Both the position numbers and the translations under genes were made by a program. From Acidobacteriota bacterium (GTDB taxonomy: Bacteria > Acidobacteriota > UBA6911 > RPQK01 > JAJDTT01): a DNA stretch of 64,000 nt. Under the pieces are notes generated by a model, which worked only from the letters and a program-made list of their open reading frames with translations, had not been told where the DNA came from and did not search any database. Positions 14,140 through 32,955 of this stretch are shown piece by piece; within the stretch, counting starts at the first letter, position 1, and every line of letters starts with the position of its first letter. The stretch lies in the NCBI GenBank assembly GCA_965209055.1, contig OZ242374.1, positions 1,696,001 through 1,760,000 on the forward strand. Direction: 5' to 3'.

Positions 14140-14147
14140 GCTCCCCG

Positions 14148-15623
14148 ATGACCGAGGGACGCACCGTGACCTCCCGGATCCTGATCGCCCTCTCCGTACT
14201 GTTGCCTCCGGTGGGCCTGGTACTGGTGTGGGCGCGGTCCGGCTGGAGGACAAGGAACCGGTTGCTGGCAAGCCTCGCGCTCCTGGCATTGACCTGGGTC
14301 TACGTGTTTCAGGCGGTGGGTCTGAGCATCGAACGGGACGGCACCGGTTGGCGTCCGCTGGTCTCCATTTCGCCGGTCTGGTCCCGGTACGCAACGGCCG
14401 AGGGAGCATCCGCTTCAGGCGGGGCTCACGCTGCTCCTGCATCGGATGTCCGGAGCTGGACCGGGTTTCGGGGGTCGGACCGGGACAGCCGCTACCTGGA
14501 GGGAGAGATCCGGACCGCTTGGCCCGGTGATGGACTCCCGCTGCTCTGGAGGCGGCCGGTGGGAGGCGGATACGCTTCCATCGTCGCCGGTTCGGGGCTT
14601 CTCTTCACCATCGAACAGCGGGGCCCCCAGGAGGTCGTGGCTGCCTATGATCCGGACACCGGCGCTGAGGTTTGGACCCATGGCTGGGACGCCGAGTTCC
14701 AGGAGACCATGGGAGGTGACGGGCCCCGGGCGACTCCCCAGTGGCACGACGGTCGACTTTACGTCCTGGGAGCCACCGGCGAGTTCCGTTGCTTCGATGC
14801 CGCCAGCGGGAAAGTTCAATGGGGGTTGAACATCCTCTCGGACAACAGCGCCCGGAATCTGGTTTGGGGCATGTCCGCCTCACCCCTGATTACGGGTGAC
14901 CAGGTCATTCTCCTCCCCGGCGGGGCGTCGGACCGATCCGTCGTCTCCTATCATCGGCTCACCGGCAAGTTCCTCTGGGGAGCGCTCAGCGACAAACAGG
15001 CGTATGCCGCGCCGATCGTAGCCGACCTGGCCGGGCGGGAGCAGTTGCTGGTGGTAACGGCCGAGCGAGTCGTGGGACTCGACCCGACGGGTGGCGAGCT
15101 GCTCTGGGAGTATCCCTGGGTCACCTCCTACGACGTCAATTCCGTGGAACCTCTGTTGCTGGGAAACGACCGGTTCTTCATCTCCTCCGGTTACGGCCAC
15201 GGGGCGGCGGTGCTGGAGATCGGACGGGGCGAGGACGGCTACGCCGTGAAGACCGTCTGGAAAAACAAGCGAATGAAGAACAAGTTCAACGGCTCGGTCC
15301 TCCATGAGGGTCATGTCTACGGTCTGGATGAGGCCATCCTGGCTTGCGTGGACGTAACCACGGGAGAGAGGAAGTGGAAGGGAGGCCGCTATGGTTACGG
15401 CCAGATCCTTCTGGCCTCGGGCCATCTGGTGGTGTTGACGGAGCGGGGCGATCTGGTTCTGGTCGAGGCCAACGCGGAGGAGCACCGCGAGCTGGCGCGA
15501 TTTTCGGCGCTGACCGGAAAGACCTGGAACTATCCCGTCATCGTCGCGGGCCGTCTCCTGGTGAGGAACCAGACCCAGATGGCCTGCTACGACGTGAGCC
15601 CGAGTCCGAAAGACCCCTCATAG
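14148..15623 (+). CDS. PQQ-binding-like beta-propeller protein
   Basis: WTGFRGSDRD, GPRATP and repeated ...TGxxxW motifs. Confidence 0.75.
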   Translation: MTEGRTVTSRILIALSVLLPPVGLVLVWARSGWRTRNRLLASLALLALTWVYVFQAVGLSIERDGTGWRPLVSISPVWSRYATAEGASASGGAHAAPASDVRSWTGFRGSDRDSRYLEGEIRTAWPGDGLPLLWRRPVGGGYASIVAGSGLLFTIEQRGPQEVVAAYDPDTGAEVWTHGWDAEFQETMGGDGPRATPQWHDGRLYVLGATGEFRCFDAASGKVQWGLNILSDNSARNLVWGMSASPLITGDQVILLPGGASDRSVVSYHRLTGKFLWGALSDKQAYAAPIVADLAGREQLLVVTAERVVGLDPTGGELLWEYPWVTSYDVNSVEPLLLGNDRFFISSGYGHGAAVLEIGRGEDGYAVKTVWKNKRMKNKFNGSVLHEGHVYGLDEAILACVDVTTGERKWKGGRYGYGQILLASGHLVVLTERGDLVLVEANAEEHRELARFSALTGKTWNYPVIVAGRLLVRNQTQMACYDVSPSPKDPS

Positions 15624-16988
15624 AGCCCACGGCTTCCGATACTCCCGGTGCAGGAGTCCGTTGGCCTCGTCGTCGCCCAAGACCCGTTCCCTGGCGCCGT
15701 CCCACCGGATCCGCCGTCCCAGGCGGAGGGCGATATTCCCCAGATGCGGAGTCGAGGTGGATCGGTGGCCGATTTCCACGTCCGAGATGGGCTTCTTCCG
15801 GGTTCGAACGCAATCCAGGAAGTTCAGGACGTGGCTGAAGTGCTGCTCGGAGCCGGGAGCCGTCCGAAATCCGGCTCTTCCTTCACTGGAACTCCACTCC
15901 CGCCTGCGTCGATCAGGTGTCTTCTGATCCAGCATCCTCAGGTAGCGGGGCCGCTGGGCGACTGCCGTCCCTGCCGTCTCGGGCCGGATCTCGAAGCCGC
16001 CGCGATTCAGATAGAGGGTCCCGTCGGTGCCGAAAAACTCGATGCCGTAGCCTCGACCCGCGGGACCGCGGGCGTTCCCGACCCTGTGGGAGAAGGAGGC
16101 GATGAATCCGGGATACTCGTAAAGGACCTCCAGCGTATCGGGCGTCTCCCGGTTGTCGTCGATGCAGAAGTTGCCCCCGACGGCGGTGGCGGCCAGGGGA
16201 GCGTCGACCTGCATGGCCCATTGGACGATGTCCAGATGATGCGTTCCCCAATCGGTGAGCATCCCTCCAGAGTAGTCCCAGAACCACCGGAACGTGTGGA
16301 TGAAACGGTTTCCGTTGAAGGGGGCCTTGGGCGCCGGACCCAGCCAGAGATCCCAGTCCAGACCCGGCGGGGGTTCCGTGTCCCGGGGCCGGCCCATCCC
16401 GGCCGGACTCTCGTTGCCGTAGTTCCAGGTGTTGACCCGGCTCACCTTGCCGATGGCCCCCTCCTCGACCAGCTTGACGGCCTCCTGGAAGTGCTCGCCG
16501 GAACGCTGTTGCGTCCCCATCTGGACGATTCTTCCGTTGCGGCGAGCCGCCTCCACCATTTTCCGTCCTTCGTAAATGGTCAGGGAGAGCGGCTTCTCCA
16601 CGTAGACGTCCTTCCCGGCGTCGCACGCCATCACGGTGGGCAGCGCATGCCAGTGATCGGGCGTGGAGACGACGACCACGTCCACCTCGTTGAGGTCGAG
16701 GACCTGCCGGAAGTCCTTGTAGCCGGCCGCCTTTCCTCCCTCCTGGTCGGCGGTCATCTGCAGAGTCAGGTCGCGGTTGTGATCCCAAACGTCACAGACG
16801 GCCGCCGCCCGGACCTGCCCCGACCGGAGGAAGTCCCTCATATTGCTGCGCCCCATGCCCCCGGTCCCGACGAAGGCGCAAATCAGCCGGTCATTGGCCC
16901 CGAGGGGACCTCCCTTGCCGGTCTGGAGAGCGGGAGCTCCAGCGACTGCCGCCGCCGATGCCACGAACTTGCGTCTGTTCATCTTCAT
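15618..16988 (-). CDS. Gfo/Idh/MocA oxidoreductase with Tat signal
   Basis: NRRKF, TPDHWHA, YVEKP, GTQQRS. Confidence 0.85.
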   Translation of the reverse strand: MKMNRRKFVASAAAVAGAPALQTGKGGPLGANDRLICAFVGTGGMGRSNMRDFLRSGQVRAAAVCDVWDHNRDLTLQMTADQEGGKAAGYKDFRQVLDLNEVDVVVVSTPDHWHALPTVMACDAGKDVYVEKPLSLTIYEGRKMVEAARRNGRIVQMGTQQRSGEHFQEAVKLVEEGAIGKVSRVNTWNYGNESPAGMGRPRDTEPPPGLDWDLWLGPAPKAPFNGNRFIHTFRWFWDYSGGMLTDWGTHHLDIVQWAMQVDAPLAATAVGGNFCIDDNRETPDTLEVLYEYPGFIASFSHRVGNARGPAGRGYGIEFFGTDGTLYLNRGGFEIRPETAGTAVAQRPRYLRMLDQKTPDRRRREWSSSEGRAGFRTAPGSEQHFSHVLNFLDCVRTRKKPISDVEIGHRSTSTPHLGNIALRLGRRIRWDGARERVLGDDEANGLLHREYRKPWAL

Positions 16989-17088
16989 AACTGGAACTCC
17001 TGGGCTGGGCTTCGCTACGATGCCTAAACTCTAATGTATAATTCCGGCATCGAACAGAGCAGGGTTCTCCGACATCGAGGCTGACACT

Positions 17089-17595
17089 ATGAATTGGAAC
17101 ACCTTCCGCCGACTTCCTGATGATGCCCGAGTCTGGATCAGTGGTTTCGAACGTCCGCTCGGTCCGGCCGAGCAGGAGACGGTCCGGGCGGGAATGGAGC
17201 GCTTTGCGGCCGGTTGGGCGTCGCACCAGGTCCCGGTCGAGTCCGCATTCGAGATCGTCCAGGATCGCTTTCTGGTGATCGCCGCCTGTACCCCGGGTTC
17301 AGTGTCCGGTTGCTCCATCGACAGCATGATGAGGAATATGCGGGACCTGTATTCGGCCGTCGGTGTCGCGCCTCCCGCCGGCAACCTCGTCTACTTCCGT
17401 GATGAGACCGGCCGGATCCAGTCCATCGACCACCTGGAGTTCCGTGACGTGGCCGACTCGGGCCGGCTCAAGCCGGACACCCGGGTGTTCGATACGATGA
17501 TTCAGAACCTGGGGCAGTTGCGAGCCGGCCGGTTCGAACTCCCCTACCAAGAGGCGTGGCACTCCCGGGCGTTTCCTCTTCCCGTCACCGCGTGA
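17089..17595 (+). CDS. Conserved hypothetical protein; its 3' end marks the island boundary
   Basis: ARVWI...WASH...SGCSIDS; the last ~115 nt are duplicated at 29101-29216. Confidence 0.65.
   Translation: MNWNTFRRLPDDARVWISGFERPLGPAEQETVRAGMERFAAGWASHQVPVESAFEIVQDRFLVIAACTPGSVSGCSIDSMMRNMRDLYSAVGVAPPAGNLVYFRDETGRIQSIDHLEFRDVADSGRLKPDTRVFDTMIQNLGQLRAGRFELPYQEAWHSRAFPLPVTA
17481..17595 (+). repeat. Left copy of diverged direct repeat bounding the island
   Basis: About 84% identical by eye to 29101-29216 over the first 100 nt. Confidence 0.85.
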
Positions 17596-17624
17596 GTCTG
17601 CCGGCGAGCCGGGGATTCTGGCCG

Positions 17625-18023
17625 CTACGCGGAAACTCGAGCGTCGCGATCTTTCTCACTGAAAGCCTTGATGGGGACGTCCAGAAGAATCTCCGAATAC
17701 GGTACACGCGGGACCACGCGGCCCCGATCTCCCTTTTCCAGACGCACCAGACCGTAACGCTCCATCGTGTGCAGCGTTCGGGACAGATTGGAACGGGCAC
17801 GCCCTGAGCGCTCGGCCAGTTCGGCAATCGAGGCCGGCTTCTCCTCCGTAATCATCCTTAGTAGCGCGCGGTTGCGATCGGACAGGACCTTGGCAAAGCT
17901 TTCGAGAGAAGGAAACCACACCTTGGGTTCGCCTCGTCCCGGCCGATGCTCGGCGCGCGCAATGGCCAAGGTTCAGGCCTCCATCTCTCCATAACCGGCA
18001 ATGCCGACTCGCAATGTCTTCAT
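17625..18023 (-). pseudogene. HTH antitoxin-like regulator with in-frame TGA at codon 17
   Basis: MKTLRVGIAGYGEMEA*TLAIAR...FPSLESFAKVLS...SIAELAERSGRARSNLSRTL; stop at 17973-17975. Confidence 0.7.
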
Positions 18024-18361
18024 GGCGTCACTCCGCTCTCTGCCAACACGGCCTCGACCTCCGTCCGGAAATCCGCAAGCAACTGGGCCGCATCGCGATA
18101 CTCATAGGGCCGGATGGTCCGATGACGGTGTCGGTGATCAGGGGCCAACCTCCGGCGTCCCGCCGGTCCCGCTGGCGAAGGGACCGGATGAGCGTCATCG
18201 AATCCGACCAGTCGCGTGCCTCCGGGTCCATGAAGCGTCAGCGCGTACATGAGCCTTTGTGGCTTCTCCAGGGTCGGAGGAATACGCTTGACGCGAAAGC
18301 GCACCCAGCGCTCCCCAGCCGGATCGATCACGAGAACCTCCTCGTCCAGATCCAAAAGCAT
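18020..18361 (-). CDS. Putative toxin partner (DUF6516/TumE-like); start uncertain
   Basis: YALTLHGPGGTRLVGFDDAH...DHRH; overlaps the start of the HTH gene. Confidence 0.55.
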   Translation of the reverse strand: MLLDLDEEVLVIDPAGERWVRFRVKRIPPTLEKPQRLMYALTLHGPGGTRLVGFDDAHPVPSPAGPAGRRRLAPDHRHRHRTIRPYEYRDAAQLLADFRTEVEAVLAESGVTP

Positions 18362-18623
18362 ATCCAGGCTTGGATCGCGCAGCGGCCTCGCGTTTTTGGA
18401 GTATCACATACTGATACTCTGTTCCTAGTCGTCTGGGAGGTGACCAGAGTGACCCGAAAACGGAATTGTCCTTCTTTTCGCTGTCCCCTTCCTGAGTCGG
18501 GACGAAGCGAAAGGCGCGAAAGATAGGGAACGCGGGAAGGGACTCCAGGAGTTGGCGGCCGGATATTAGGCCGGTTCCGAAATCAGCGGCTTCTAGTCAG
18601 CACGGTCGTCGGGGCCTCGAATT

Positions 18624-18651
18624 ATTGTCGGTAACGTACGTTACCGTAAAT
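18624..18651 (+). other. dif-like site 1
   Basis: ATTGTCGGTAA-CGTACG-TTACCGTAAAT (11-6-11). Confidence 0.5.
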
Positions 18652-18797
18652 GGTTGTGGCCGGACCGCTGCCCGATCTCGCCCCCCTCAAGCCCGTCCGT
18701 GGTGACGTCGCCGCGCCTACGCCCGGGCCGTCGGGTGGTTTCTCGAATTCTGTGAGCGCGAGGACGTGGAGATCCACCGGGTCACGCGGGGCCGGAT

Positions 18798-19574
18798 GTG
18801 GAGCCCACCGGAAGGAGAGATCCCGGAGGGAGTCGGTATAGGCAGGAGTGGAGTCGTTTGGCCCTTGATAAGCTCCTACAGTGGACGAACATAGTCTACA
18901 TGGTGTCCGTGGGGACCGCCGCCGTCGCGACGTTTGCGATCTACCATTTGTCCGCGCGTGTCAACGCTGCCAAAGATCGCGAGCTGGAACAGTACCGAAC
19001 CGAGTCCAGGATCAAGATAACCGCCGCGCAGGCCGAAGCCGCCGAGGCGAGAAAGATCGCGGAATCCGAGCGCCTCGCGCGAGCGGAGATGGAGTCCCAG
19101 ATCGCCGTCGCCGAGGCCCGCGCCGCAGAGGCGAATGCCGTCGCCTCGCAAGCACAGCTAGAGCTTGCGAGGCTCAAGGAGCCCAGGACCATAGCGCCGG
19201 AGGACCAAGAGAAGATCATCGTCGCCCTGAAGGAATTCGCGGGACAAAATTTCGGCTTCTCTGTGTTTCCAGACCCGGAGTCGTTATCACTCCTTCGAGC
19301 TCTTGACGCCATGCTGAAATCGGCCGGATGGATTAGAGTGCCGGCCCAGATCGGCGATATCGTCGTCGACGCCGCCGGAAACACCGCCGGAACGTCACAC
19401 GACTCCGGCGTGGCTGCATTCGTCGGTCCGGAAAACCGTAACGCGAGGGTTGCACTACTGACTCTAAGCAAGGCTCTCACGGTCTCAGGAATTCCCTGCA
19501 AACCGAGCCGGACTGAACAGCTACGAGACAAGACCCCCAAGGCAATAATCATCAACGTCGGAAAGAAGCCGTAG
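18798..19574 (+). CDS. Hypothetical protein (TM helix plus coiled coil); start uncertain
   Basis: 258 aa ORF with an N-terminal hydrophobic segment and an Ala/Glu-rich helix. Confidence 0.6.
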   Translation: MEPTGRRDPGGSRYRQEWSRLALDKLLQWTNIVYMVSVGTAAVATFAIYHLSARVNAAKDRELEQYRTESRIKITAAQAEAAEARKIAESERLARAEMESQIAVAEARAAEANAVASQAQLELARLKEPRTIAPEDQEKIIVALKEFAGQNFGFSVFPDPESLSLLRALDAMLKSAGWIRVPAQIGDIVVDAAGNTAGTSHDSGVAAFVGPENRNARVALLTLSKALTVSGIPCKPSRTEQLRDKTPKAIIINVGKKP

Positions 19575-19761
19575 CCGATGGCGTTGGATGGAGTGCCGAC
19601 CCTGCACCCGGTAAGGCGGAAGAATGTCTCCCAATCTCTGACGGTCGAGAAGTTCCACCGGGAGTGCCTGCGGATGGCGGAGTTCCCGCTGGGCGCGCGA
19701 TCGGCGACAGGTCCGAAGGGCCACAGGCGGGCGCAGAGGAAGACGGTCTGGAACCTATTTA

Positions 19762-19790
19762 GCCTACGATAAGTTGATCTTATCGGACCC
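19762..19790 (-). other. dif-like site 2
   Basis: Minus strand GGGTCCGATAA-GATCAAC-TTATCGTAGGC (11-7-11). Confidence 0.5.
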
Positions 19791-19902
19791 TGATCCCTCT
19801 CGGGGGCCTCTGACCCGCTTTTCCTAGGCCGGATTTCCAGGCAGGTCGGCGCTGATTCACGCGCCCCGAGAGAAACGGACAAACCCTCCTCTTCCCCGCA
19901 GG

Positions 19903-19947
19903 GACTCCGTTAATTTCAGTTAACGGATGTTCTCCAGAGACTCGCCG
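19903..19947. repeat. dif-like site 3 / direct repeat downstream of the LRR gene
   Basis: GACTCCGTTAA-TTTCAG-TTAACGGATGT; 19910-19947 matches 27732-27769 at 32/38. Confidence 0.6.
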
Positions 19948-19968
19948 TCCCCAGCTATTCTCGGCAGG

Positions 19969-20559
19969 TCATCGGAGAACTGGAACCACGGGCAAGGTCG
20001 TGAAGATACGGTTGTCGGCGTCCATCTCCAGGGCCAACCCCGTGAACCTCCCGATGTCTGGCACGGTGCAGCGCACGGACCCCTCGAAGTCCGAAGTGAT
20101 GGTCTTGGCGAACAGCTCGTGGATGAACTGCGCCGTCTGTCCGTTGCCGGCTATTGAAATTTCCTGCTCTTCCAATGCCCTGCCGGCGCGCATCAGTTGG
20201 CATGTGACCTTGATCGCATTCTTCGTCAGGTTGCGGATGGCCATCCCTGTGCGAATTCCTCTGATTTGGTGTCGAGCCGGGAAGATTGCATCCTGGACGG
20301 CCTCACTGGCGCCGACTCCTGCGACGCCAATCTCTGGGTGGTCGAACCGCAGGAACCCACCGATTGGACCGTCTGCGACAACCTTCACCGAGCCAGTTGT
20401 CAGATCCCCCCGGCCGTGGGTGGAGATCGTGAGTTCCCCTAGTGGGACCAATGGCGTCTCCACGGTCAAGGCTCCATCGCTCTGGATCTTAAGGCCGATT
20501 ACCAGGTCCAACATCGCCTCAGGAGGAATGAGGGCTCCTTCACCGTCGTAGAATTGAAT
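19969..20559 (-). pseudogene. 3' fragment of the IS-interrupted LRR gene
   Basis: IQFYDGEG... continues in frame from ...GPIHPVIQ at 25361; second copy of the C-terminal domain of the LRR protein. Confidence 0.85.
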
Positions 20560-20598
20560 GGGGATTATACAGTTGACTAGGCACTCCTGCATTCCTGG

Positions 20599-20898
20599 TC
20601 ACTTGGGGTGAGCAATCTCGAAGCTCACGATCAAAGAAGCCTCGTGACTTTCCCCATCGCCCATCCTTTTGGCTTCTCGCAAAGCTCGGAACGCTCTTTC
20701 CATAACCGTGAGGTCCGCCCTCTCAAGTCTACGATTGTTGCAGATAGGACAACAATCGATGCTTTTTGCTCTGAAGGAAGGGCCAGGCCCTTTCAGTGAG
20801 AAGACCGTTTCGCCCTTACACTTTTCATCAGGGCAGATGACCCGCATCTTAAGAATGTCTTGAGCTCCGAAAACAATCCTTTTTTCCTTCACTATCAT
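20599..20898 (-). CDS. Small Cys-rich (possible Zn-ribbon) hypothetical cargo protein
   Basis: CPDEKC...CPIC; TATAAT and GGAGGT immediately upstream. Confidence 0.6.
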   Translation of the reverse strand: MIVKEKRIVFGAQDILKMRVICPDEKCKGETVFSLKGPGPSFRAKSIDCCPICNNRRLERADLTVMERAFRALREAKRMGDGESHEASLIVSFEIAHPK

Positions 20899-20926
20899 AC
20901 CTCCATTATACTAGTATTTTATACAG

Positions 20927-22543
20927 TTATTCGGAAGAATCAGGACACCCTTGTGGAGGATCAGATGCTGAAACGTTTACTGGATCAGTGTCTTTCCAAT
21001 ACGTCACCTTTGCTTCATAGAACTCAGAATAGTTCGGATGTTCAGGCAATTGGAGTTTGTAACCTCTAGGGTGTTTCCAAATGTCATCAGATGGCACCCG
21101 AATAGACTTCTTGTACCAAATAGGTGATCCAGCCCAAGGTCGTTGATAAGTCACTTCCACTGGATCTGCTTCTTCCATTCGTCGGTGATATGCACTGAGA
21201 TTTGGGTTGTCACTACTTGTTGAGCCGGAGAAGGAGCCCGAACCTCCTATCCTTTCGTGCAGGTGTAATTTGGCAGCGGCAAGGCATTGGCTTTCACCGT
21301 ATTCGGTAATCCAAAATATCTGAGCACCGGTTACATAATCGATTATTGGAGCATACCGAGAATTTTGGTGCGCTCGTCTTTTTCCCTCGTACGGAGGGGT
21401 AGGATAAATCTCAATCCTCTGCACGGCGGGTAGTTCTCCTGTTCTGTCTCTTCTAAAAGCTCCGACGTGGAGGGCTTCATCCCCGGAGACGTTATCAGGA
21501 GCATGAGTAGGGCCTACTCCACCATTTTGAGACAGGACATCCCACCAACCGCCTGGAGAACAATCATCTGGAGAAACGGGAGACGGCCCATCCCAAAAAC
21601 GACGCCAACGCAAAGCGTGCCAATCAGCGTTTCCTTGTTCTCGAGGAAACAACTCCAAAACCATTAAGGTTCGAGGCAGGTAGTCTAAATCGTTGTCTAC
21701 TTCAAGCAGATAGTTGGTGAACCTACCAACCACACGACGATTGACTCGATAGAATTCGGAACCCACATTGATCCCAAACTCATAGACTGGTATTACGATT
21801 TCATCAGTCAGGGTACGGACACACTCATGGGTCTCCAAAACTTTGGGATTTAGATGGTCGTATTCTTTAACGGGAGCCAAAGATGCTTCTACACGACTGC
21901 CACGACTGCATTGAGTCTCATCTAGGATAAAACGGTGTATGGAAGATGCTCCTGGACTCAATCCATAATCTCGTATTGGAAGGACGGTTTTGTCTCCGAC
22001 AGGAATGAAAGGCGTCGCAAAGTAACTGCCTGGGTTCTCAATTGGATCGTACTCGGTGATCCTCCATTGTTGGACGCCTTGACAGTCGTTTCCTTTGGTA
22101 TTCGCTTGGAGGTAAGAAAGATGGATAATCTGGCCGTCATGATGATCTTGGTCAAGATCAACACTTAAGTTACATTGCTCATGTATCATATGAGGGATGT
22201 CTCCGTAAGGAGTTGAGAAGACCCCTCCCTTCGCCCCTGTAAGAAACGCAAACGCAATCAAGACCCTCACAACCTTTTTCGATGTGGAGTTCTTTGATTC
22301 GTTCCGGTCCTTAATCCACAAGATAATAGCAATGAGCAAGGCAAAGGGCAGAGCAGTAAATACGAGTGTTGCTAAGATTGCAGCAATACCTAATCCGCTC
22401 AGTGTCAACCCGAGCAGGATAGATCCTAACGATCCGCTGGCGGCAAGTATGACACCACCTGCGATTATAAGAACTGCAACTAACCCGTGTATACCTTCCT
22501 TATTGTTGAGTATCCCTTCGCACATCTCCCGGAAATCTCGCAT
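20927..22543 (-). CDS. Hypothetical membrane-anchored cargo protein, 538 aa
   Basis: Long ORF in lower-GC DNA, RBS GAGGAGG, N-terminal hydrophobic helices; no family recognised. Confidence 0.65.
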   Translation of the reverse strand: MRDFREMCEGILNNKEGIHGLVAVLIIAGGVILAASGSLGSILLGLTLSGLGIAAILATLVFTALPFALLIAIILWIKDRNESKNSTSKKVVRVLIAFAFLTGAKGGVFSTPYGDIPHMIHEQCNLSVDLDQDHHDGQIIHLSYLQANTKGNDCQGVQQWRITEYDPIENPGSYFATPFIPVGDKTVLPIRDYGLSPGASSIHRFILDETQCSRGSRVEASLAPVKEYDHLNPKVLETHECVRTLTDEIVIPVYEFGINVGSEFYRVNRRVVGRFTNYLLEVDNDLDYLPRTLMVLELFPREQGNADWHALRWRRFWDGPSPVSPDDCSPGGWWDVLSQNGGVGPTHAPDNVSGDEALHVGAFRRDRTGELPAVQRIEIYPTPPYEGKRRAHQNSRYAPIIDYVTGAQIFWITEYGESQCLAAAKLHLHERIGGSGSFSGSTSSDNPNLSAYHRRMEEADPVEVTYQRPWAGSPIWYKKSIRVPSDDIWKHPRGYKLQLPEHPNYSEFYEAKVTYWKDTDPVNVSASDPPQGCPDSSE

Positions 22544-22581
22544 GACCCCTCCTCTCGACTTGGGTAGAATGGTGGGATGGA

Positions 22582-22674
22582 GGCAGGGTGGACGAAGATT
22601 GGATTAAGTCGCCCGACTGAAAATCGGGTAGGGTTGAAAGGCCCTCGCGGGTTCAACACCCGTCCCTGCCACCA
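22582..22674 (+). tRNA. Atypical long-variable-arm tRNA with GAA (Phe) anticodon
   Basis: GGCAGGG/CCCTGCC acceptor, GAC/GTC D-stem, CCCGA-CT GAA AA-TCGGG, V-arm AGGGTT-GAAA-GGCCCT, GCGGG-TTCAACA-CCCGT, A73, encoded CCA. Confidence 0.8.
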
Positions 22675-22704
22675 TCAAGCATCAATATATGATACTTCCC
22701 ATAT

Positions 22705-22968
22705 TCACAGGGGCCAGGTTGGGAACGGTGGAGGAGTCAGCCAGACACACTCATCATTGAAGATTCTCAATGTCCAGCCGTTTTCCTTCTCGCGGAACTT
22801 GGCATGAGCTCTCAACGCTCCTCGGTTGAGGGATTTCACTTTCCATAGCACCGCAGTCTCTTTCGAGAGTCTGGCCAGGTCGGCCCAGGTGATTGGGCCG
22901 TGGACTGACATGAGGTGATCGAGGAATCGAACGTGGTGTTTGAATTCGTGGGGTGCTTTGTGGGACAT
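22705..22968 (-). CDS. Small hypothetical cargo protein, 87 aa
   Basis: AGGAGA RBS before ATG 22968 (MSHKAPHEF...). Confidence 0.45.
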   Translation of the reverse strand: MSHKAPHEFKHHVRFLDHLMSVHGPITWADLARLSKETAVLWKVKSLNRGALRAHAKFREKENGWTLRIFNDECVWLTPPPFPTWPL

Positions 22969-23010
22969 CGACGGGTCTCCTACGCTGTCCAGGTGGAATC
23001 CACCGTGGAC

Positions 23011-23209
23011 TGTTGTCTGCAATCAGCACCCCAGTGCAGATAGGGAGCCGGGTCATCGCAGACAACGCATAGGAAGTCGGAAGTGCTCTTCCAGTCCCTG
23101 CCTATTCGCCCCGTCCGATTCATGACGTCGCACGGTTTATAATGCCTTTTGTATTTGGCAGGTGACCCGGCACAGGATGCGCCACGGGAAACCTACGGCT
23201 GTCTGCAAT
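23011..23209 (-). ncRNA. Predicted structured RNA unit, copy A
   Basis: Interleaved pairings GCAGACAGCCGTAGG/CCTATGCGTTGTCTGC and GCCGGGTCA/TGACCCGGC; conserved in copy B. Confidence 0.55.
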
Positions 23210-23373
23210 GCCGATCATAACAGACAGGACTGGAACGCTCAACTGCCGCTACTCTCGGGAACGGCTCCTCCCTACGCGGGGCAGAGCCCGCCATGATCGT
23301 GAGTCCAACAACCACCTCCTACGTTGCCCGAAAAATTAGCAATCAAAACCAAAATGGCGATGCCTCCGAGCGG

Positions 23374-23555
23374 GTTGTCTACGCCGACGATCCCACGTCT
23401 GCACATTGTGGGAGCCGGGTCATTGCAGACAACACGTAGGAAGTGAAGTTGCTACTTATTTACTCAGCAAGGTCATGACTCCTTGCGATTACGAGCTATT
23501 GCATTCAGTAGCTGACCCGGCACACTTGCGGGAGAACCCTTAGCGTTGTCTACGG
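23374..23555 (-). ncRNA. Predicted structured RNA unit, copy B
   Basis: 23410-23444 matches 23043-23077 at 32/35; same pairings with G-U variants. Confidence 0.55.
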
Positions 23556-23666
23556 GTGGATCTTACTGGAAGGAGGGCTGGATTGCAAACCCGCCCCACC
23601 CACAAAATTTTTCGAGCACTCGAAATACTTCTGAGGTTTGCAGTACAATACAGGTTACAACGAAGA

Positions 23667-23747
23667 TGGCAGGCGCCCCAGGCAGGATTCGAACCTGCAA
23701 CCTTCGGCTGCGATACCGTTGCTCATCCATCTGAGCTTCTGGGGCGC
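23667..23747 (-). ncRNA. tRNA-like RNA (Arg-like body, 6-nt anticodon loop containing TCG)
   Basis: GCTC-AGATGGAT-GAGC D-arm, GCAGG-TTCGAAT-CCTGC T-arm, 9 bp GCGCCCCAG/CTGGGGCGC stem; TATAAT at 23754-23759. Confidence 0.65.
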
Positions 23748-23864
23748 TTCGCCATTATAACCTACTCGGAGGGCAGAAAATGCGTCGTGGGAAGAACCGC
23801 AAGCCAGTTGACATTTTAGCCTTGGCAATGCAGAAAGCGCATCAGCAGGTCAGAGACGGGGACC

Positions 23865-24836
23865 TCAATTCTGAGACTCGTCCGACTCATCATCAGCAGT
23901 CAGATCAAGATACATCAGACGACGGCCGACCAGTCCCGCCACGATGTGCTTCATCTGATCAATAGTATCCAGCTCTCGGATATTGTGACGCTTGGCGAAC
24001 TCACTGACGTATCGGTGTAGGTGCTTTTCACTCATCTTGTGGAAAGTGCCCGTGTAGCCGCGTTTTAACATCGACCAAAAGGACTCCATGCCATTCGTGT
24101 GTGCCATGCCTCTGACATACTCGCCTACTGTGTGCTTGACAGATTCCCGTCTATGGCCCATCCAATCGTAGGCTGGATTCTCGTCTGTGTATGATCTCAC
24201 CCACAAGACAGAGTTTTCCAGGATGAACGTGGAAAGTGTTGCCTTGGTTGTATCGGGAACAACCCTAGCCCTGATCTGATTGGTCGGACGATCTTTCATT
24301 CCCACAACTGCGACTTTGCCAACAGACCCTCGACCAGAGAATTGAGCCCGGCGCTTGGCACTCATATTCCGCCTCTTGCCTCCAATGTAAGTCTCGTCAA
24401 TCTCCACCGGCCCGGACAGAGTCTCTGAGTCGTCCTCGGTCCAGGATTGCCGAAGTCGATGAAGCATGAACCACGCTGTGGCTTGTGTCACATCGATGTC
24501 TCGGTGGAGTTTCATTGAGGAGACTCCCTTGAGGTTCGTAATGTAGATGAAGATCGCCAAGGCCCATTTCTGTAACGGGACGTGGGATCTGGCCAAGGTC
24601 GTGCCAGTGCGGACTGAAAAGTAGCGCCGACAGTCAGAACACCAGTAAGGTTGAGGCCGTCGTTTCGGAGTCTCGTTCGTCTTGACGCTGCCGCAATGCC
24701 CACAGCATCGCTCATCGGGCCAGAGTACGGACTCGAACCATTTTTCCGCGGATTCCTCATCCGGGAACATCTTGAAAAGTTGGATCAGTGAGATTCCTTG
24801 TCGGTAAAACTTGCCTGGAGCTTTTGCTTTCTTCAT
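23865..24836 (-). CDS. IS1595-family transposase
   Basis: Zn finger CGHC...CSDC, VEIDETYIGG, YTDE, HTNGMESFWSMLKR. Confidence 0.95.
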   Translation of the reverse strand: MKKAKAPGKFYRQGISLIQLFKMFPDEESAEKWFESVLWPDERCCGHCGSVKTNETPKRRPQPYWCSDCRRYFSVRTGTTLARSHVPLQKWALAIFIYITNLKGVSSMKLHRDIDVTQATAWFMLHRLRQSWTEDDSETLSGPVEIDETYIGGKRRNMSAKRRAQFSGRGSVGKVAVVGMKDRPTNQIRARVVPDTTKATLSTFILENSVLWVRSYTDENPAYDWMGHRRESVKHTVGEYVRGMAHTNGMESFWSMLKRGYTGTFHKMSEKHLHRYVSEFAKRHNIRELDTIDQMKHIVAGLVGRRLMYLDLTADDESDESQN

Positions 24837-24966
24837 TGTCTCCCTCTCAATTTCCTGAACATTTTATCACAGGACCCTGACATTTTTCTGTAGTAAGTCC
24901 TTTGTTATGTTTAGTTTACACAGATTGTCGTGAGGGCAGTACAATAAAACATGATGGCGGAGGGAT

Positions 24967-25075
24967 GGACACAGCGGGGTACGATCCCGCGACCTCCCAG
25001 TTCTAAGTGCCCGTGGTAGGAAAAATTTTGGGCACCAGAGCCGGGTGTTCTGCCAGCATAAAGAACTATGCGGCC
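24967..25075 (-). ncRNA. tRNA-like RNA with 33-nt insertion in the anticodon loop
   Basis: GGCCGCA/TGTGTCC, GTTC/GAAC D-stem, CCCGG/CTGGG, AGGTC V-loop, GCGGG-ATCGTAC-CCCGC; TAGAAT at 25091-25096. Confidence 0.6.
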
Positions 25076-25127
25076 TTCGTCTCCGCCATCATTCTACCAG
25101 ATTTCCAAGGGGAAGGGAAGATGGTGA

Positions 25128-25292
25128 GGCGCAAAGATTCCTGGCTTTCGGCTCTCCCAAGTGGCTTTCTTGTGGCAAGGGCCTGGGCTGGGGTTACATG
25201 CCCTGGAAGATCGCATCAAACTGGGCGCAAAGATTCCTGGCCCGGGCCTGGGGGAACCTGAAGCTGGGCCTAGGCTGGGGTTACGCGCCCTG
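25128..25292 (+). repeat. Two tandem hairpin units with conserved arms and variable cores
   Basis: GGCGCAAAGATTCCTGGC at 25128 and 25224; GGGCCTRGGCTGGGGTTACRYGCCCTG at 25179 and 25266. Confidence 0.75.
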
Positions 25293-25358
25293 TTGACCAT
25301 CGTAGCGGGTTCGATGTCTTTGGTCAATCAGGGGTACCTAGTCAACTGTATAATCCCC

Positions 25359-27526
25359 AATTGAATGACTGGGTGAATCGGGCCCGATGCTACATTCACG
25401 AGCACCAAGTCGGAAGTGATGGAGGAACCGTTGGCGAAATGGGGGAAATGCAAATGCATGTTGTCCTGCGTGCGCATCGGTGGAACCGGAACCACGGGCA
25501 AGGTCGTGAAGATCCGGTTCTGGAAATCCATCTCCAAAGCCACACCGGTGAACAGAGAATCCTCGGGAGCCATGCACCGAACCGATCCCACGAAGTTCCC
25601 CGTATAGGTCTCGGGGAATAATTCATCAATGAACTGGGCCGTCTGGCCGTGTCCAGCCAGCGGGATATCCACGTCGCCACGCAAGTTGTTCCTTTGCGTC
25701 AGTTGGCAACTCACGGTGATCGGATCCTCTCCCCGGTTACGAATCGCCACTCCAGTATTGATTCCTGATTCTTGGCGCCGCACAGGGAAAATCGCGTCCT
25801 GTACGGCTATTCCCGTACCCACCCCGGCGACTCCCATGTCCGAGCTGTCAAAGCGCAGAACTCCCCCGATGGGACCGTCCGCCACAGCCCTTGCCGATCC
25901 CGTGACCAAATCCCCTCGGCCATGGGTCGAGATCGTGAGTTGTCCCAGGGGTTCTATTTCCTTCCGTACGGTCAGGGACCCGTCGGCCCGGATCAAACGA
26001 TCCTCTCCGACATCCACTATGGATGCCGGGTCTATGAGGTTTCCCTCGGCGTCGAAAAAGTAGAGGGCCGGCTGGATGGGAGTGGCTCCAACATTCACGA
26101 ACACCAACTCGGAGCGAATGGACGCCCCGTTGGCAAATTGGGAGAATTCCAAGGAAAGTCCTGCCAGTACAGTCAGCGGCTCGGCAGATCTGATAAACGT
26201 GTAACCAAGACTGCCCCCAAGCTGGAGCGGGAGCTGTGCGATCTCGACGGTGACCGGAGAAGTCGTTCCAGACTGTCGAGCCACCGAATAAACGTCGCTT
26301 GTCTCTCGCCCTGCGGGAATCGTGACGTGGGATGAATCCCCGCGAAGCATGCCGTTGGTTACAATGATCCGCAGACGGATCTCAAAGGGTGCGCCAGTAG
26401 GCACTCTAAGCTGGAATCGGCCTGGAGCCACCCATTCCATAAAAACGTTGATGAGTAGACGATGCGCCGGATTGTTTCTCATCGTGAAAATTTGCATGGA
26501 AGAGAGACCGAAGAAGATGCCATCTGGCAGGCTGGTCAGCCTATTGTTGTCCAGATAGAGAGTTCGTAGTGAGGAAAGACCGGAGAACGCTCCCGCCGGC
26601 AAACTAACCAGTTTATTCCCACTCAGTACAAGCAGTTGCAGTGTAGAAAGTTCAGCGAAGGCTCCTACCGGAAGGGTAGTCAGCGCACTGTCATTCAGGA
26701 GGAGAGTTCGTATTGAGGTGAGGCCGGAGAACGCTCCCGCCGGCAAGCTGGTCAATTCATTCCCGCCCAGATGGAGATGTATCAGCGAGGAGAGGCCGGT
26801 GAAGGCCCCCACCGGCAGGGTGGTCAGCGCATTGTGAGACAGGCGGAGAAGCTTTAGCGAGGAGAGGCCGGTGAAGGCCCCAGCTGACAGGTTCATCAGC
26901 CCGGTCAGCGGCGTGTTGGGAAAGGATGAGTTGGAAGCACTAGCCAGGTTGAGTTCTTGCAGTGAGGAGAGGCCGGTGAAGGTCCCCGCCATCAGCCCGG
27001 TTAGCTTAGTAAATGACAGGTTGAGTTCTTGCAACGAGGGGAGGCCGGTGAAGGCCCCAGCCGGCAGACTGGTCAACTTTGTACTAGACAGATCGAGAGT
27101 TTCCAGTGAGGAGAGCCCGGTGAACACTCCCGCCGGTAGAGTGGTAAGGGGAGTCAGGTTCAAATAGAGCGTTGTCACCGAAGAAAGTCCCGAGAAATCG
27201 CCGACTCTCAACGCTGTCACTGGTGGCGGCGGCCGTCGTTCGCGGCTGGGGTTGTTCCAATCGGGCGAAGAGTAATACCCGCCGTGAAAAAACTCGCCCT
27301 CAATCGCAGCCAGATGAACCTCGGTCACGTCGGTGCAATCATCTATCCCCGACACCAGACTCACGATCTCGTCGCGCACCTCCGGGGTCCTGTCGCAGAC
27401 GGGGACGATCTGAGCTACGACTGGCTCTGACGCGGCCAGCAGGCCCAAGCTCAAGGTGACGGTTAACAGCGAGCTTCTGGATCGCTGCCGGCAACGATGC
27501 AGAATCTTCGAAAAGTGGACTGACAT
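25359..27526 (-). pseudogene. Secreted leucine-rich-repeat protein, 5' part (interrupted by IS1595 element)
   Basis: RBS GGAGGAG, signal peptide, 24-aa LxxLPxGxFxGLxSLxxLxL repeats; the predicted ORF ends in TIR-derived LGIIQLTRYP. Confidence 0.85.
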
Positions 27527-27724
27527 CTGAATGGCTCCTCCAGGTAGACGGTAGCGGCTCATACTGTATTCAGGGATGCAGAGGGGCTCCTGCTGGCCGA
27601 ATTGTAGTCCGGCCCACCGATCCGGTGGCCCGGGGCCGTACCTCGTTTTTTCCTGATGGGGTCACCGAGTCAGGGGGGTGGCCACGATTTCGGGAGTCCC
27701 AAGTCACACCGAGGGAGATGGACG

Positions 27725-27769
27725 ACGGCCATTAATTTCAGTTTACGGACGCGCTCCAGGGTCTCGCCG
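27725..27769. repeat. dif-like site 4 / direct repeat upstream of the LRR gene
   Basis: ACGGCCATTAA-TTTCAG-TTTACGGACGC, same spacer as site 3. Confidence 0.55.
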
Positions 27770-27943
27770 ACTCCGAGGGCCTCCAGAGTCGATTACAAGA
27801 ATTCGAAAGCGGATCCAACACGTAATTTCGGTCGGGACGCTCTCGGAGGGCTTATACTTCTTCTGGGCCGCGTTTCCGGAGGGCCATGAGTTGATCCGGA
27901 GTTCCCAGGTCTCCATGCAATAGGCAGCTTAGGGGCGCATGAG

Positions 27944-28762
27944 GTGAAGCATCCACCACAGTTCGAACGCATCATTGCAGCCCGCCATCCGGTCCACATT
28001 AAGGCCTTCTGCGTTGGTCAGGCAAAAGCTGGCACAGCATCACTCGTCGGACTGTTGTCAGCCAACTACCGTGCTGCCCATGAGCCTGAGCGCGCGGAGA
28101 CGCTTGAGGTCATCCTCCGCGAAGCTCGAGGCGAAATCTCGTCAGCGGCCATGAGGTCCTATCTTCACGATCGGGCCGCGCGGCTCGACCTTGAGTATGA
28201 CGTAGCTTGGGCGAACCAGTTCATCATCGATCACCTGTTGTCCGTATTTCCAACTGCGAGGTTCATCGTCCTGATTCGCGACTGCTACACGTGGCTCCGG
28301 TCGATCATGGGTCATTTAGTTGGCCGCGACGTACCCCGCGACGTTTTGGATTTCCTCCGGTGGTGGTTCAAGCCAGAGCTGCATCCACACAATCCTCACG
28401 ATCAAATTCTTGCGGATCTCGGTCTTTTTTCGATAGCTGCGTATCTATATGCGTGGAACCGGCACGTTGACACGTGCACCGGTTCGATTCCCGTAGATCA
28501 GCGACTGATGCTGCGGACGCACGAGTTGGACTCATCACATCAACGCCTAGCGGAGTTTCTACAGATACCGGTGGGATCGCTTGATAGCGCATCTGGACAC
28601 CGGAATCGCGGCAGGTGGTCGGAGCGGATTGAGTCCCTCGTGGAGCCAGCTTACATTGACGATATGGTCCATTCAGTCTGCGGCGCCAACATGCAGCTGC
28701 ACTTTCCCGAAATCGGAAGCATTCACGACGTTTCGAGATTAGGGGCCGATCGCGGCACCTGA
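27944..28762 (+). CDS. Sulfotransferase-family protein
   Basis: FCVGQAKAGTASL (5'-PSB loop), HEP, ARFIVLIRD...WLRS. Confidence 0.7.
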   Translation: MKHPPQFERIIAARHPVHIKAFCVGQAKAGTASLVGLLSANYRAAHEPERAETLEVILREARGEISSAAMRSYLHDRAARLDLEYDVAWANQFIIDHLLSVFPTARFIVLIRDCYTWLRSIMGHLVGRDVPRDVLDFLRWWFKPELHPHNPHDQILADLGLFSIAAYLYAWNRHVDTCTGSIPVDQRLMLRTHELDSSHQRLAEFLQIPVGSLDSASGHRNRGRWSERIESLVEPAYIDDMVHSVCGANMQLHFPEIGSIHDVSRLGADRGT

Positions 28763-28970
28763 TTTCCCTGTGTCAAGAAAACAAACTGGACCCTTCAGCA
28801 CCACCCATGCCGGTTTCGGGTTTGAGAGGTGATGCTTCCCGGGAGCCGGAGGAAAACGCCGCATCCTCAGCTGACGGGTTCAGCCGGCCCGGCGAGTTCG
28901 CGCGGCCGGCGAGCGAGTTAGACGAGCGTCCCAGCCAGCGCAGATCATCGGGAATCAGGGGCGTGGCTTA

Positions 28971-28998
28971 GAATACGATAAAGTATATTATGCGTATC
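28971..28998 (-). other. dif-like site 5
   Basis: Minus strand GATACGCATAA-TATACT-TTATCGTATTC (11-6-11), resembling E. coli dif GGTGCGCATAA-TGTATA-TTATGTTAAAT. Confidence 0.6.
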
Positions 28999-29100
28999 TA
29001 ATGTGGCCTCTCTGGAGTCAGTCCTGAAGACTCACGTTTCGCTTACCGAAACGCAATGAATCAAGAAGGCGACAGTCTATTCCCCTTAAGATCAAGCCCC

Positions 29101-29216
29101 CCGGGTGTTCGATACGCTCATTCAGAATCTGGGGCAGTTGATAGTCGGCCGCTTCGAACTTCCGTCCCAAGAGGCGTGCCACTGCCGCGTCTTTCCTCTC
29201 GCGGGTCACTGCGTGA
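29101..29216 (+). repeat. Right copy of the island direct repeat (degenerate 3' end of the 17089-17595 gene)
   Basis: Encodes FDTLIQNLGQL..GRFELP versus FDTMIQNLGQL..GRFELP. Confidence 0.85.
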
Positions 29217-29237: not shown

Positions 29238-29903
29238 TCACGGGACGCGCCCCGCTACTACCATGTGCCGGTCACCCACGATCCGCACTACCAATTGCGC
29301 CAAGCCCGCTTCCCGTAGCTGATCCGATATTTCATCGGCACGATAGGCGGCCAACAGGGAATGGTAGAAGTCCCGCTGGAGGATCTCCGGTTCGTCTTCG
29401 CAATAGGTTCGAACCAGCTCTCGCGCCCGTCGGCGGCTATTAGGCCGGAGAAGGTCCATGACGAAGACTCCGCTGCCGGAGCGGGACAGCCGGTGGACTT
29501 CCCGCCACAGGATCATCGGGTCGGGCAGATGGTGGAGCAGGCTGTTGCTGACGATGGTGTCGTAGGCGGGCCGGGGGAGGGTGACTCCCGGCAGATATCC
29601 CGAATGGAGTTGTACCCTGTCCTCCACGCCGGCCTCCCGGATGGCTTGCCGGCCGTAGTCGAGCATGGCCTGGGCGGCGTCTACGCCGTGGACTCTACAG
29701 TCCGGGTAAGCATTGGCGACGCGAATGCTGATATCGGCGGACCCACAGCCCAGGTCAGCCACACAGGGTCCGACTTCCAGAACCGGGAACGTGTCCTGCA
29801 TGAGACTCAGGAATCGGCTGTGCGGTTCCTCGAAGTCGGCGTGGGCGTAGGCTCGGGCCTGTTCCTGACCCTCCATCAACTCCGGCTCGGGGACTCGTTT
29901 CAT
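29238..29903 (-). CDS. Class I SAM-dependent methyltransferase
   Basis: ADLGCGSA, SNSLLHH. Confidence 0.85.
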   Translation of the reverse strand: MKRVPEPELMEGQEQARAYAHADFEEPHSRFLSLMQDTFPVLEVGPCVADLGCGSADISIRVANAYPDCRVHGVDAAQAMLDYGRQAIREAGVEDRVQLHSGYLPGVTLPRPAYDTIVSNSLLHHLPDPMILWREVHRLSRSGSGVFVMDLLRPNSRRRARELVRTYCEDEPEILQRDFYHSLLAAYRADEISDQLREAGLAQLVVRIVGDRHMVVAGRVP

Positions 29904-30409
29904 GTTCTACAAGTGCTCCGGTCTCGTAATCTGTCCAAGGTGAGAAAGGTATAGTGGTTGGGGTCCGTTTTTTCCGGTTCATGGACTTCCATCCGGCGGA
30001 CCTCCCAGTGCGACTCGTCATAGCGGGGGAAGTAGGTATCCCCTTCGAAATCGTCAGGAAGCAGGGTCAGGTACATGCGGTCGGCCAGGTTCAAGGTCTG
30101 GCGGTAGACTCCGGCGCCGCCTCCGACGAAGACCTCGTTGTCACCTTGAGCGAAGCGGAGGGCATCTTCCAGGGAGGCCGCCACCTGGACCCCCGCGGGC
30201 GCATAGGAGCGCCGTCCGGTGAGTACGATGGAGATTCGGCCCGGCAACGGCCGGCCGATGGACTCGAAGGTCTTTCTCCCCATGATCAGATGGTGGCCCA
30301 TGGTGAGCCGCTTGAATCTCCGCCAATCGGCCGGGAGCCGCCACGGCAACCGGTTGTCGCGGCCGATGACGCGGTTCCGGGCCATGGCCGCGATGATGGA
30401 CAGCCTCAT
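29900..30409 (-). CDS. folA: Dihydrofolate reductase
   Basis: [11 protein letters not shown]...LPW.LPAD...[16 protein letters not shown]. Confidence 0.95.
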
Positions 30410-31200: not shown

Positions 31201-31408
31201 GGGCCCGACGGTTCCTGAGCGATTCAATCGCATTGTAGTAAACCGGAGCGACGATCCGCACGCGGCTGGCCCCCAGAAGCTTCGTTGCTGGATTCCCACT
31301 CTTCCCCTGTGTTGCCTGGTTTGAGCCGCCGCATATAGAATCGGTCCGCTCGCCGGTTGAACCGCCATGGTTTCCGGGGGTTCGGGCCGACGGAGAAGGA
31401 ACGCAGGC

Positions 31409-32341: not shown

Positions 32342-32346
32342 ATCTC

Positions 32347-32925: not shown

Positions 32926-32955
32926 GTCGTTGGAAGCGAACAGCGAGGAACTGAA

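Follow-up and report, generated by a model that had tools for sequence, protein, structure and literature searches.

A class II tRNA gene of serine-like architecture with a phenylalanine anticodon in a transposase-linked module of an Acidobacteriota genome

To our knowledge, only a few kinds of natural bacterial tRNA combine a body of one type with an anticodon of another, namely, the allo-tRNAs, tRNA-ProX, and the Sec/Cys (selenocysteine/cysteine) hybrids. Here we describe a tRNA gene of 93 nucleotides (nt) in a 64,000-nt stretch of an Acidobacteriota genome (contig OZ242374.1, positions 1,696,001 to 1,760,000; the whole stretch is referred to as the window). The gene combines a long variable arm with the phenylalanine (Phe) anticodon GAA, and its nearest tRNA type, judged by sequence and predicted fold, is serine (Ser). 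The allo-tRNAs are the closest known kind. They are known from Clostridia, Proteobacteria, and Acidobacteria, have a long arm, and carry 35 anticodons, that of Phe once, and the members that were tested inserted Ser in Escherichia coli (Mukai et al. 2017, Nucleic Acids Res, PMC5389517). The gene in the window and its family, described below, resemble the allo-tRNAs in the long arm and the non-Ser anticodons and resemble some of them in the link to transposon genes and the irregular runs of tRNA genes. In contrast, the allo-tRNAs have an 8/4 or 9/3 branch where the gene has 7/5, and a Sec-like D arm of a long stem and a tetraloop where the gene has a stem of 3 base pairs (bp) and a loop of 14 nt (PMC5389517).

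We found no literature report of a 7/5 class II (long-arm) bacterial tRNA with GAA, although the supplements of PMC5389517, which lay outside the search, might list one. As a variation on this known kind, we describe here 7/5 tRNAs of Ser architecture with GAA and CAG in a recurring transposase-linked module. Yeasts of the Candida clade decode CUG with a nuclear, vertically inherited tRNA-Ser(CAG), a fixed codon reassignment. A Ser-type body with the leucine (Leu) anticodon CAG also occurs in two relatives of our gene ('a' and 'd' of the congeneric genome G005), but no reassignment was seen in the module proteins here. Arrays of horizontally transferred tRNA genes reportedly occur in Mycobacterium. 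Supernumerary tRNA genes on mobile DNA, some of them pseudogenes, also make up the Anabaena L-array, but there functional tRNAs are added to the host set, and no mismatch of body and anticodon came up in the portions of the source at hand (PMC8421152). In the human variant tRNA-Ser-AGA-2-3 G35A, a Ser body with a Phe anticodon (AAA) puts Ser at Phe codons, but this is a single-base variant of a eukaryotic housekeeping gene, whereas our gene belongs to a diverged mobile family (PMC12993449, PMC8599886). In the tRNA-ProX/ProRSx systems of Streptomyces and Kitasatospora, identity elements for one amino acid likewise occur together with anticodons for others, but these systems consist of class I proline (Pro) bodies and a dedicated synthetase paralog, whereas the genome here has one serS and one pheS (PMC11415595).

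Because its shape is the ordinary 7/5, standard annotation files the gene as tRNA-Phe, and anticodon-based annotation hides such genes. As far as its sequence can tell, the gene may place the wrong amino acid at Phe codons. Its recurrence alongside a transposase and a single rare protein offers a defined system for measuring expression, charging, and Phe-to-Ser substitution.

The tRNA gene and its relatives

The genome that holds the window (G000) is a single contig (C1) of 6.08 Mb with a GC content of 62.8%, and a normal 76-nt tRNA-Phe(GAA) lies elsewhere in it, at C1:1580492. The gene under study is as follows:

22582..22674, plus strand: class II 7/5 tRNA gene with anticodon GAA at 22619-22621, A73, and encoded CCA at 22672-22674

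The 93-nt sequence folds into a complete 7/5 cloverleaf. A 7-bp acceptor stem (GGCAGGG/CCCTGCC) is followed by U8 and G9, a 3-bp D stem (GAC/GUC) with a 14-nt loop containing A14 and G18G19, and then G26. The 5-bp anticodon stem (CCCGA/UCGGG) closes the loop CUGAAAA, in which U33 and A37 are intact. The 18-nt variable region (U, then AGGGUU-GAAA-GGCCCU, then C) forms 6 bp, two of them G.U, with a single unpaired base on each side, and the 5-bp T stem (GCGGG/CCCGU) carries the loop UUCAACA, in which UUCRA is kept. All 26 stem pairs are standard or G.U, and an 8/4 fold is impossible because U8 would oppose U65. The base-paired variable arm and the 3-bp D stem are those of class II. An earlier description made from the letters alone (the original prediction) had reported this cloverleaf with its encoded CCA, A73, GAA, and 6-bp arm capped by GAAA, as well as a TAGAAT upstream at 22565-22570; on re-reading, the cloverleaf was correct in every detail, and the TAGAAT is present.

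The Rfam tRNA model (RF00005) scored 44 bits over 22582-22671, above its gathering score of 29 (E value, 2.4e-7; 9.8e-8 in the search of the whole genome). ARAGORN labels the gene tRNA-Phe(gaa) but places the start 5 nt late, at 22587; a true start at 22582 is supported by the covariance model and by the hand fold. The minimum free energy was -40.5 kcal/mol (z, -3.09), and 1 of 200 shuffled sequences was equally stable. The gene is thus a real, intact tRNA gene.

The closest relative that we found is gene 'c' of the congener G005, which belongs to a locus (L106) of eight tRNA-like genes:

'a' and 'd': class II, anticodon CAG, with U73 and G73, respectively
'b': irregular long-arm gene
'c': class II, loop CUGAAAA, G73, CCA
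'e': L106 6274-6352 (G005:C1:48273-48351), minus strand, class I, loop CUGAAAA (GAA)
'f', 'g', and 'h': L106 6477-6752, minus strand, one class I body repeated three times in tandem, carrying AGC, CGC, and GGC

Gene 'c' is 76% identical to the gene in the window. The two have identical anticodon loops and 16 identical pairs, and they differ by six compensatory changes and two one-sided changes. Across the four class II genes of this family (the gene in the window, 'a', 'c', and 'd'; two genomes, with 'a' and 'd' 98% identical), 97% of the cells pair, and both partners have changed in 11 of the 26 pairs. Of 500 shuffles, none scored as high, and slid controls were 39 to 56% paired. These compensatory changes therefore indicate selection for the fold after the copies diverged. 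A covariance model of the four genes (R2) scored them at 95 to 103 bits, while the next best matches among 40 relatives, at 73.5 bits, were ordinary Ser tRNAs. When R2 was run on 150 genomes of the phylum, there was no match at an E value of 1e-17. Isotype profiles placed all four genes best, although weakly (16 to 30 bits), with Ser. Our best reading is that the gene would belong to a small family of class II tRNAs that moves horizontally and combines Ser architecture with non-Ser anticodons.

We then compared the gene with 18 long-arm tRNA genes of its own genome, which comprise Ser, Leu, tyrosine (Tyr), and Sec tRNAs and two Leu-like genes with AGA. Identities ranged from 39 to 62%, with Ser(UGA) at the top; at no more than 62% identity to any of them, the gene did not arise by recent point mutation of a host tRNA. 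A recent G35A mutant of host Ser(GGA) (60% identity) and a U34G derivative of host Leu(UAA) (54 to 58% identity; Leu profile, 15 bits) were both ruled out. A covariance model built from the gene alone (R1) scored 120.8 bits on the gene itself, 67.1 on Ser(UGA), 65.8 on Ser(GGA), 61.9 on Leu(CAA), and at most 52.7 on Leu(UAA) in the same genome. In 150 genomes of the phylum, R1 found only ordinary Ser tRNAs, below 74 bits (top match, 73.4 bits), apart from one tRNA-Leu among the best 29 loci, the other 28 of which are tRNA-Ser.

Anticodon-masked profile hidden Markov models were built from tRNAs of the phylum (28 Ser, 27 Leu, and 25 Tyr, from searched loci that include three of the unpublished genome G016), and true members were scored leave-one-out. 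The gene scored 29.7 bits on the Ser profile and 15.0 bits on the Leu profile and had no match to the Tyr profile; true Leu tRNAs scored 6 to 18 bits on the Ser profile. It matches 32 of the 42 Ser columns that are conserved at ≥90% and differs from the Ser consensus at 3-70, 4-69, G15, the T loop, and position 73. Its arm layout (U44, 6 bp, GAAA, and C48) is the same as in host Ser(UGA) and the Ser consensus of the phylum, while in place of a Ser anticodon (NGA or GCU) it carries GAA. Based on the R1 and profile scores, the gene has a Ser-like architecture yet lies outside the Ser family of the host phylum.

These comparisons bear on the original prediction. The proposed Ser-like arm geometry was borne out, both by the layout shared with host Ser(UGA) and by the 28 Ser tRNAs among the 29 nearest neighbors. 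The suggested check on GAA in homologs also came out in its favor, since 'c' retains CUGAAAA unchanged and neither GGA nor GUA occurs in any relative. In contrast, the remark that GAA is one change from GGA (Ser) or GTA (Tyr) fails for the host genes, given a body at most 62% identical and a score below every true Ser tRNA.

Separately, we observed six tRNA-Leu(UAA) genes in the host (C1 477237, 1381642, 1991443, 2104898, 2524782, and 3018716), all without encoded CCA, three of which have a common upstream leader (...ggaggggyggatggat). CCA is encoded in host Leu(CAA), Leu(CAG), and Leu(GAG) and in the four class II Ser genes (GCU, UGA, CGA, and GGA).

Charging and decoding

Table 1 of Giege and Eriani 2023 (PMC9976931) lists the bacterial identity sets for Ser (G73, C72, G2-C71, R4-Y69, C11-G24, a large variable region, and G30-C40), Leu (A73, tertiary interactions, and A20a), and Phe (A73, U20, U45, U59, A26:G44, and G34 A35 A36). 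According to the same source, seryl-tRNA synthetase (SerRS) recognizes the tertiary shape, and G73 blocks the leucyl and tyrosyl enzymes (LeuRS and TyrRS). In E. coli tRNA-Ser, G73 counts as a determinant in vivo, though not in the case of in vitro transcripts, and G34 is the strongest Phe determinant in T. thermophilus (PMC9976931). The gene in the window holds five of the seven Ser determinants, namely, C72 (in G1-C72), G2-C71, A4-U69, G30-C40, and the large arm, and 'c', with G73 and C11-G24, has the full published set. Within the family, G1-C72, G2-C71, R4-Y69, and G30-C40 are kept in all four genes, C11-G24 in three, and G73 in two; in the phylum, G73 is present in 28 of 28 Ser tRNAs, after correction of two 1-nt boundary shifts by ARAGORN.

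On paper, charging of the gene is ambiguous, because these Ser elements (minus G73 and C11-G24) coexist with GAA and A73 for phenylalanyl-tRNA synthetase (PheRS). We rank the likely amino acids with Ser first, then Phe, then Leu or Tyr. The original prediction, which took the arm geometry as Ser-like and proposed Ser (or Leu), overlooked PheRS as a rival acting through A73 and G34 A35 A36. No second SerRS or PheRS was found in the genome.

The gene is preceded by a promoter-like site:

22542..22570, plus strand: promoter-like site found by a consensus scan (ATGACC, a 17-nt spacing, and TAGAAT)

The -10 box TAGAAT (22565-22570) ends 11 nt ahead of the mature 5' end, and many canonical tRNA genes of the host have a TAGAAT or TATAAT box 7 to 20 nt before theirs. 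The leader before G1 is gggTAGAATggtgggatgga; the near-identical gcTAGAATgggatgga precedes 'a' in G005, and the leader gctagaatgggatgga ahead of 'a' is likewise nearly identical to that of our gene. The promoter-like box fits transcription by the host polymerase.

From the observed structure, family, covariation, mobile setting, and promoter-like box, we infer transcription, serylation, and decoding as follows. Its own host-type promoter would drive transcription of the gene, and processing would leave a body of 90 nt plus CCA. The single SerRS of the host, which would read the long arm and the acceptor stem and be blind to the anticodon, would add Ser, and elongation factor Tu (EF-Tu) would bring the charged tRNA to the ribosome. 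There it would compete with the normal tRNA-Phe at UUU and UUC, giving a low level of Phe-to-Ser substitution. The family as a whole is probably charged by SerRS. For the complete reading, a mobile family of Ser architecture with non-Ser anticodons whose member in the window is serylated and causes such substitution, our confidence falls somewhat short of even, and we favor it only tentatively.

Several points weigh against this reading. The score of 29.7 bits on the Ser profile is lower than that of all 28 true Ser tRNAs (47.4 to 82.6 bits) and within the range of true Tyr tRNAs on that profile (21 to 42 bits). The D loop is 3 bases longer, and A at position 15 faces C48. The gene has A73 and A11-U24 in place of G73 and C11-G24, which weaken the Ser identity of this copy, and it has the PheRS determinants G34 A35 A36 and A73 of the published set (PMC9976931). 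In E. coli tRNA-Sec, three pairs act as EF-Tu antideterminants, and the gene has two of these, G49.U65 and C50-G64 (PMC9976931). The family has only four members, from two genomes, two of them ('a' and 'd') nearly alike, and the cargo tRNAs that adjoin the gene are visibly decayed. Moreover, where the module's own proteins have TTY codons, homologs have Phe, and nothing in the module needs the gene. Each of A73, A11-U24, G49.U65, and C50-G64 may lower the activity of the tRNA, and a lower activity could make the gene tolerable.

The Phe determinants raise the alternative that the gene is charged mainly by PheRS, through G34 A35 A36 and A73, and is a supernumerary tRNA-Phe that has a long arm without precedent and causes no mistranslation. 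All of these bacterial Phe determinants (PMC9976931) are indeed present, and A73 departs from the G73 of the closest relative in the direction of Phe identity. We nevertheless consider this alternative unlikely: host tRNA-Phe retains the core set known from E. coli (U20, G44, U45, U59, and U60), where the gene has A20, U44, A45, C59, and A60, and the 3-bp D stem and long arm are unlike those of any tRNA-Phe. Further, 'a' and 'd' carry CAG on the same body type, and the family as a whole is for that reason not a Phe family.

A73 also bears on charging by LeuRS or TyrRS, in which the block by G73 would be lifted and Leu or Tyr inserted at Phe codons. A73 was found in all 27 Leu and all 25 Tyr tRNAs sampled. 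Against such charging, the Leu profile score (15.0 bits) is far from that of true Leu tRNAs (at least 54.9 bits) and the Tyr profile gave no match, and there is no extra unpaired base 3' of the arm, where host Leu tRNAs have one and host Tyr tRNAs have two. The Leu core pair A15-U48 is missing, with C48 instead of U48, and G2-C71 replaces the C2-G71 of host Leu. TyrRS relies on U35, and the gene has A35 in place of the U35 of GUA. We regard charging with Leu or Tyr as very improbable.

The mobile island and the recurring module

The gene lies in an island (window 17580-29100; 11.5 kb) with a GC content of 45 to 58% inside, compared with 62.8% for the genome. The original prediction had identified the tRNA gene itself but missed this mobile-element setting. 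The features that bound the island or lie near the gene are as follows:

17480..17579, plus strand: left copy of a direct repeat (100 nt, 85%) that bounds the island; synteny break
20927..22543, minus strand: P0001, 538 amino acids (aa), with a hydrophobic N terminus and conserved cysteines, divergent from the tRNA gene and 38 bp away from it
22705..23022, minus strand: small open reading frame (ORF), 105 aa, 35% identical to an ORF at the equivalent place in the G005 module
23674..23745, minus strand: second tRNA-like gene (Rfam, 48 bits), missed by ARAGORN
23798..24926, minus strand: insertion sequence (IS) of the IS1595 family, its extent taken from DNA homology with the G005 copy
24966..25075, minus strand: decayed tRNA-like gene (29.3 bits) whose anticodon loop has an insert of ∼40 nt and whose acceptor stem is mismatched
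29100..29199, plus strand: right copy of the direct repeat (100 nt, 85%) that bounds the island; synteny break

In the congener G001, the flanks 14000-18107 and 29238-33999 are just 1.1 kb apart, and in G002 to G005 they are 3 to 7 kb apart; on this comparison, the island is strain specific. The transposase ORF within the IS (23865-24836) matches DDE_Tnp_IS1595 with an E value of 2e-35. No integrase was recognized in the island. The tRNA-like gene at 23674-23745, ∼50 bp from the IS end, has G73, a 6-nt anticodon loop (AUCGCA), its own TATAAT box, and an Arg-like body, which shares with host Arg(CCG) the 3' half of its anticodon stem together with the first part of the variable loop (GCCGAAGG). 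The one at 24966-25075 appears to be kin to 'e' of G005 and has a GGTAGAATG box upstream. Because the DNA homology of the IS copies covers only 23798-24926, the flanking tRNA-like genes lie 40 to 50 bp outside the IS ends. A larger unit may carry them as cargo, or a tRNA cluster may have been the insertion site of the IS.

The module was found at three loci, two in the host genome G000 and one in G005. Its genes are found in two species of one genus, whose genomes are each complete as a single contig. A P0001 paralog (28% identical) lies at G000:C1:2734863-2735903 and a homolog (38% identical) in G005 at C1:45541-46752, and no further genome among the 400 phylum genomes searched contained a homolog. 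Both of these loci adjoin IS1595 transposase homologs (56% and 79% protein identity) and odd tRNAs, and the position of the G005 module is not syntenic with the window. P0001 is rare, with 14 matches among 1.84 billion representatives, and it matched no Pfam or NCBIfam family, with one faint PADLOC hit (E value, 0.0087) and nothing in the Atlas. A 93% identical protein, P0002, is encoded by a 270-kb contig. Recoding of the module's own genes was ruled out; the module is independent of recoding, because its TTY and CTG codons align with Phe and Leu in homologs.

At the second G000 locus (C1:2737867-2738174, minus strand), there are two tandem Leu-type bodies with A73, C2-G71, and Leu profile scores of 46 to 47 bits. 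Their 7-nt loops, UUAGAAA and CUAGAAA, have AGA, a Ser anticodon with A34, at positions 34 to 36. Beside this pair are a degenerate Gly(GCC)-like gene, a second IS1595 transposase, and the P0001 paralog. At the G005 locus, the acceptor of 'e' (GGGCGCA/UGCGUCC) gives G3.U70 and A73, the identity mark of alanine (Ala), and its T loop, UCCGAAG, is unusual. Genes 'f', 'g', and 'h' have Ala anticodons without G3.U70, together with U73 and a 3-bp D stem; one has C33, and each has its own TATAAT or TAAAAT box. We also noted a class I tRNA of 73 nt at G000:C1:1817273-1817345 (minus strand; Rfam, 65.5 bits). It has C73, the T loop GUCAAUA, and GCU, a Ser anticodon, and its anticodon and T stems resemble those of 'e'.

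A broader and more speculative reading, which we hold to be rather unlikely, is that the module is a mobile "mistranslation kit," in which transposase-linked, anticodon-swapped tRNAs use three synthetase systems that ignore the anticodon and substitute Ser, Leu, or Ala. Its parts would be the Ser-type bodies with GAA or CAG, the Leu-type bodies with AGA, and the G005 Ala-type acceptor (G3.U70 and A73) with GAA. If this were true, the host's Phe, Leu(CUG), and Ser(UCU) codons would deliberately be read as Ser, Leu, or Ala when the kit is expressed.

Searches elsewhere returned no close copy of the gene. BLAST of the 93 nt against 40 relatives gave a single 30-nt match to the T arm, and against 400 phylum genomes it gave nothing; blastn of phage and plasmid sequences gave no match to the gene. 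Exact patterns of the T arm and the D arm had no matches in viral contigs, and the D-arm pattern had none in genome contigs or the metagenome. A viral scan for the GAA arm had six matches, no tRNA among them. The T-arm pattern matched genome contigs three times, none of them related; one match is the tRNA-His of a five-tRNA array in a metagenome-assembled genome (Ser-GGA, His, Trp, Arg-GCG, and Cys, with 12- to 21-nt spacers, at L004 25-458 on a 2.3-kb contig). With the anticodon left free, the anticodon-arm pattern matched seven metagenome sequences, six ordinary tRNA-Ser and one Leu-type oddity. We further observed, on metagenome contig L009 (1784-1884, minus strand), a Leu-type body (Leu profile, 40.7 bits) with A73, a very long arm, and the loop CUUGGAA (UGG, Pro), for which ARAGORN gives no call.

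This isolation, as seen by BLAST of the 400 phylum genomes and by pattern scans of genomes, the metagenome, and viruses, is among the points that suggest an inactive relic, that is, cargo of a mobile element that would be unexpressed, uncharged, or rejected by EF-Tu and heading to decay. The low GC content of the island also suits a relic, as do the damage to both adjoining tRNA-like genes (the 6-nt loop and the 40-nt insert), the irregularity of 'b' and of the Gly-like gene in the other modules, the score below all true Ser tRNAs, and the pairs G49.U65 and C50-G64. However, the 26 stem pairs are sound, and U8, A14, G18G19, U33, A37, UUCRA, and CCA are intact. The compensatory changes in the family imply selection for the fold, and a host-type promoter box is in place. 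We judge decay to be an unlikely explanation, though one to be taken seriously.

The gene might also act outside translation, for instance in regulation, in the structure of the mobile element, or against nucleases that target tRNAs, which it would counter as a decoy or antidote. Inactive allo-tRNAs with links to transposons and toxin-antitoxin genes have been proposed to have such roles (PMC5389517), and the odd tRNAs 40 to 50 bp from both IS ends would suit them. On the other hand, the gene looks like a translational tRNA: CCA is encoded, the anticodon loop is canonical (U33 and A37), and no tertiary nucleotide is missing. Nor was any nuclease or toxin-antitoxin gene recognized in the island. 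A role of this sort seems quite improbable to us.

Elsewhere in the island, a 207-aa ORF (19969-20592) is 59% identical to part of the island's 744-aa leucine-rich-repeat protein (25328-27562), whose gene contains 72-nt tandem repeats (26479-27211); both ORFs come from multicopy families of the genus. Two further observations, from sequencing runs, carry no information on the tRNA gene. In runs X1 and X3, which contain the window, a second variant of parts of the island (21548-21773, 23114-23164, and 24189-24267) was present, ∼10% diverged and at roughly one-third of the depth; it was not seen in the same sample over 21972-22775. Low-depth pieces of the P0001 gene were found in runs from sponge metagenomes.
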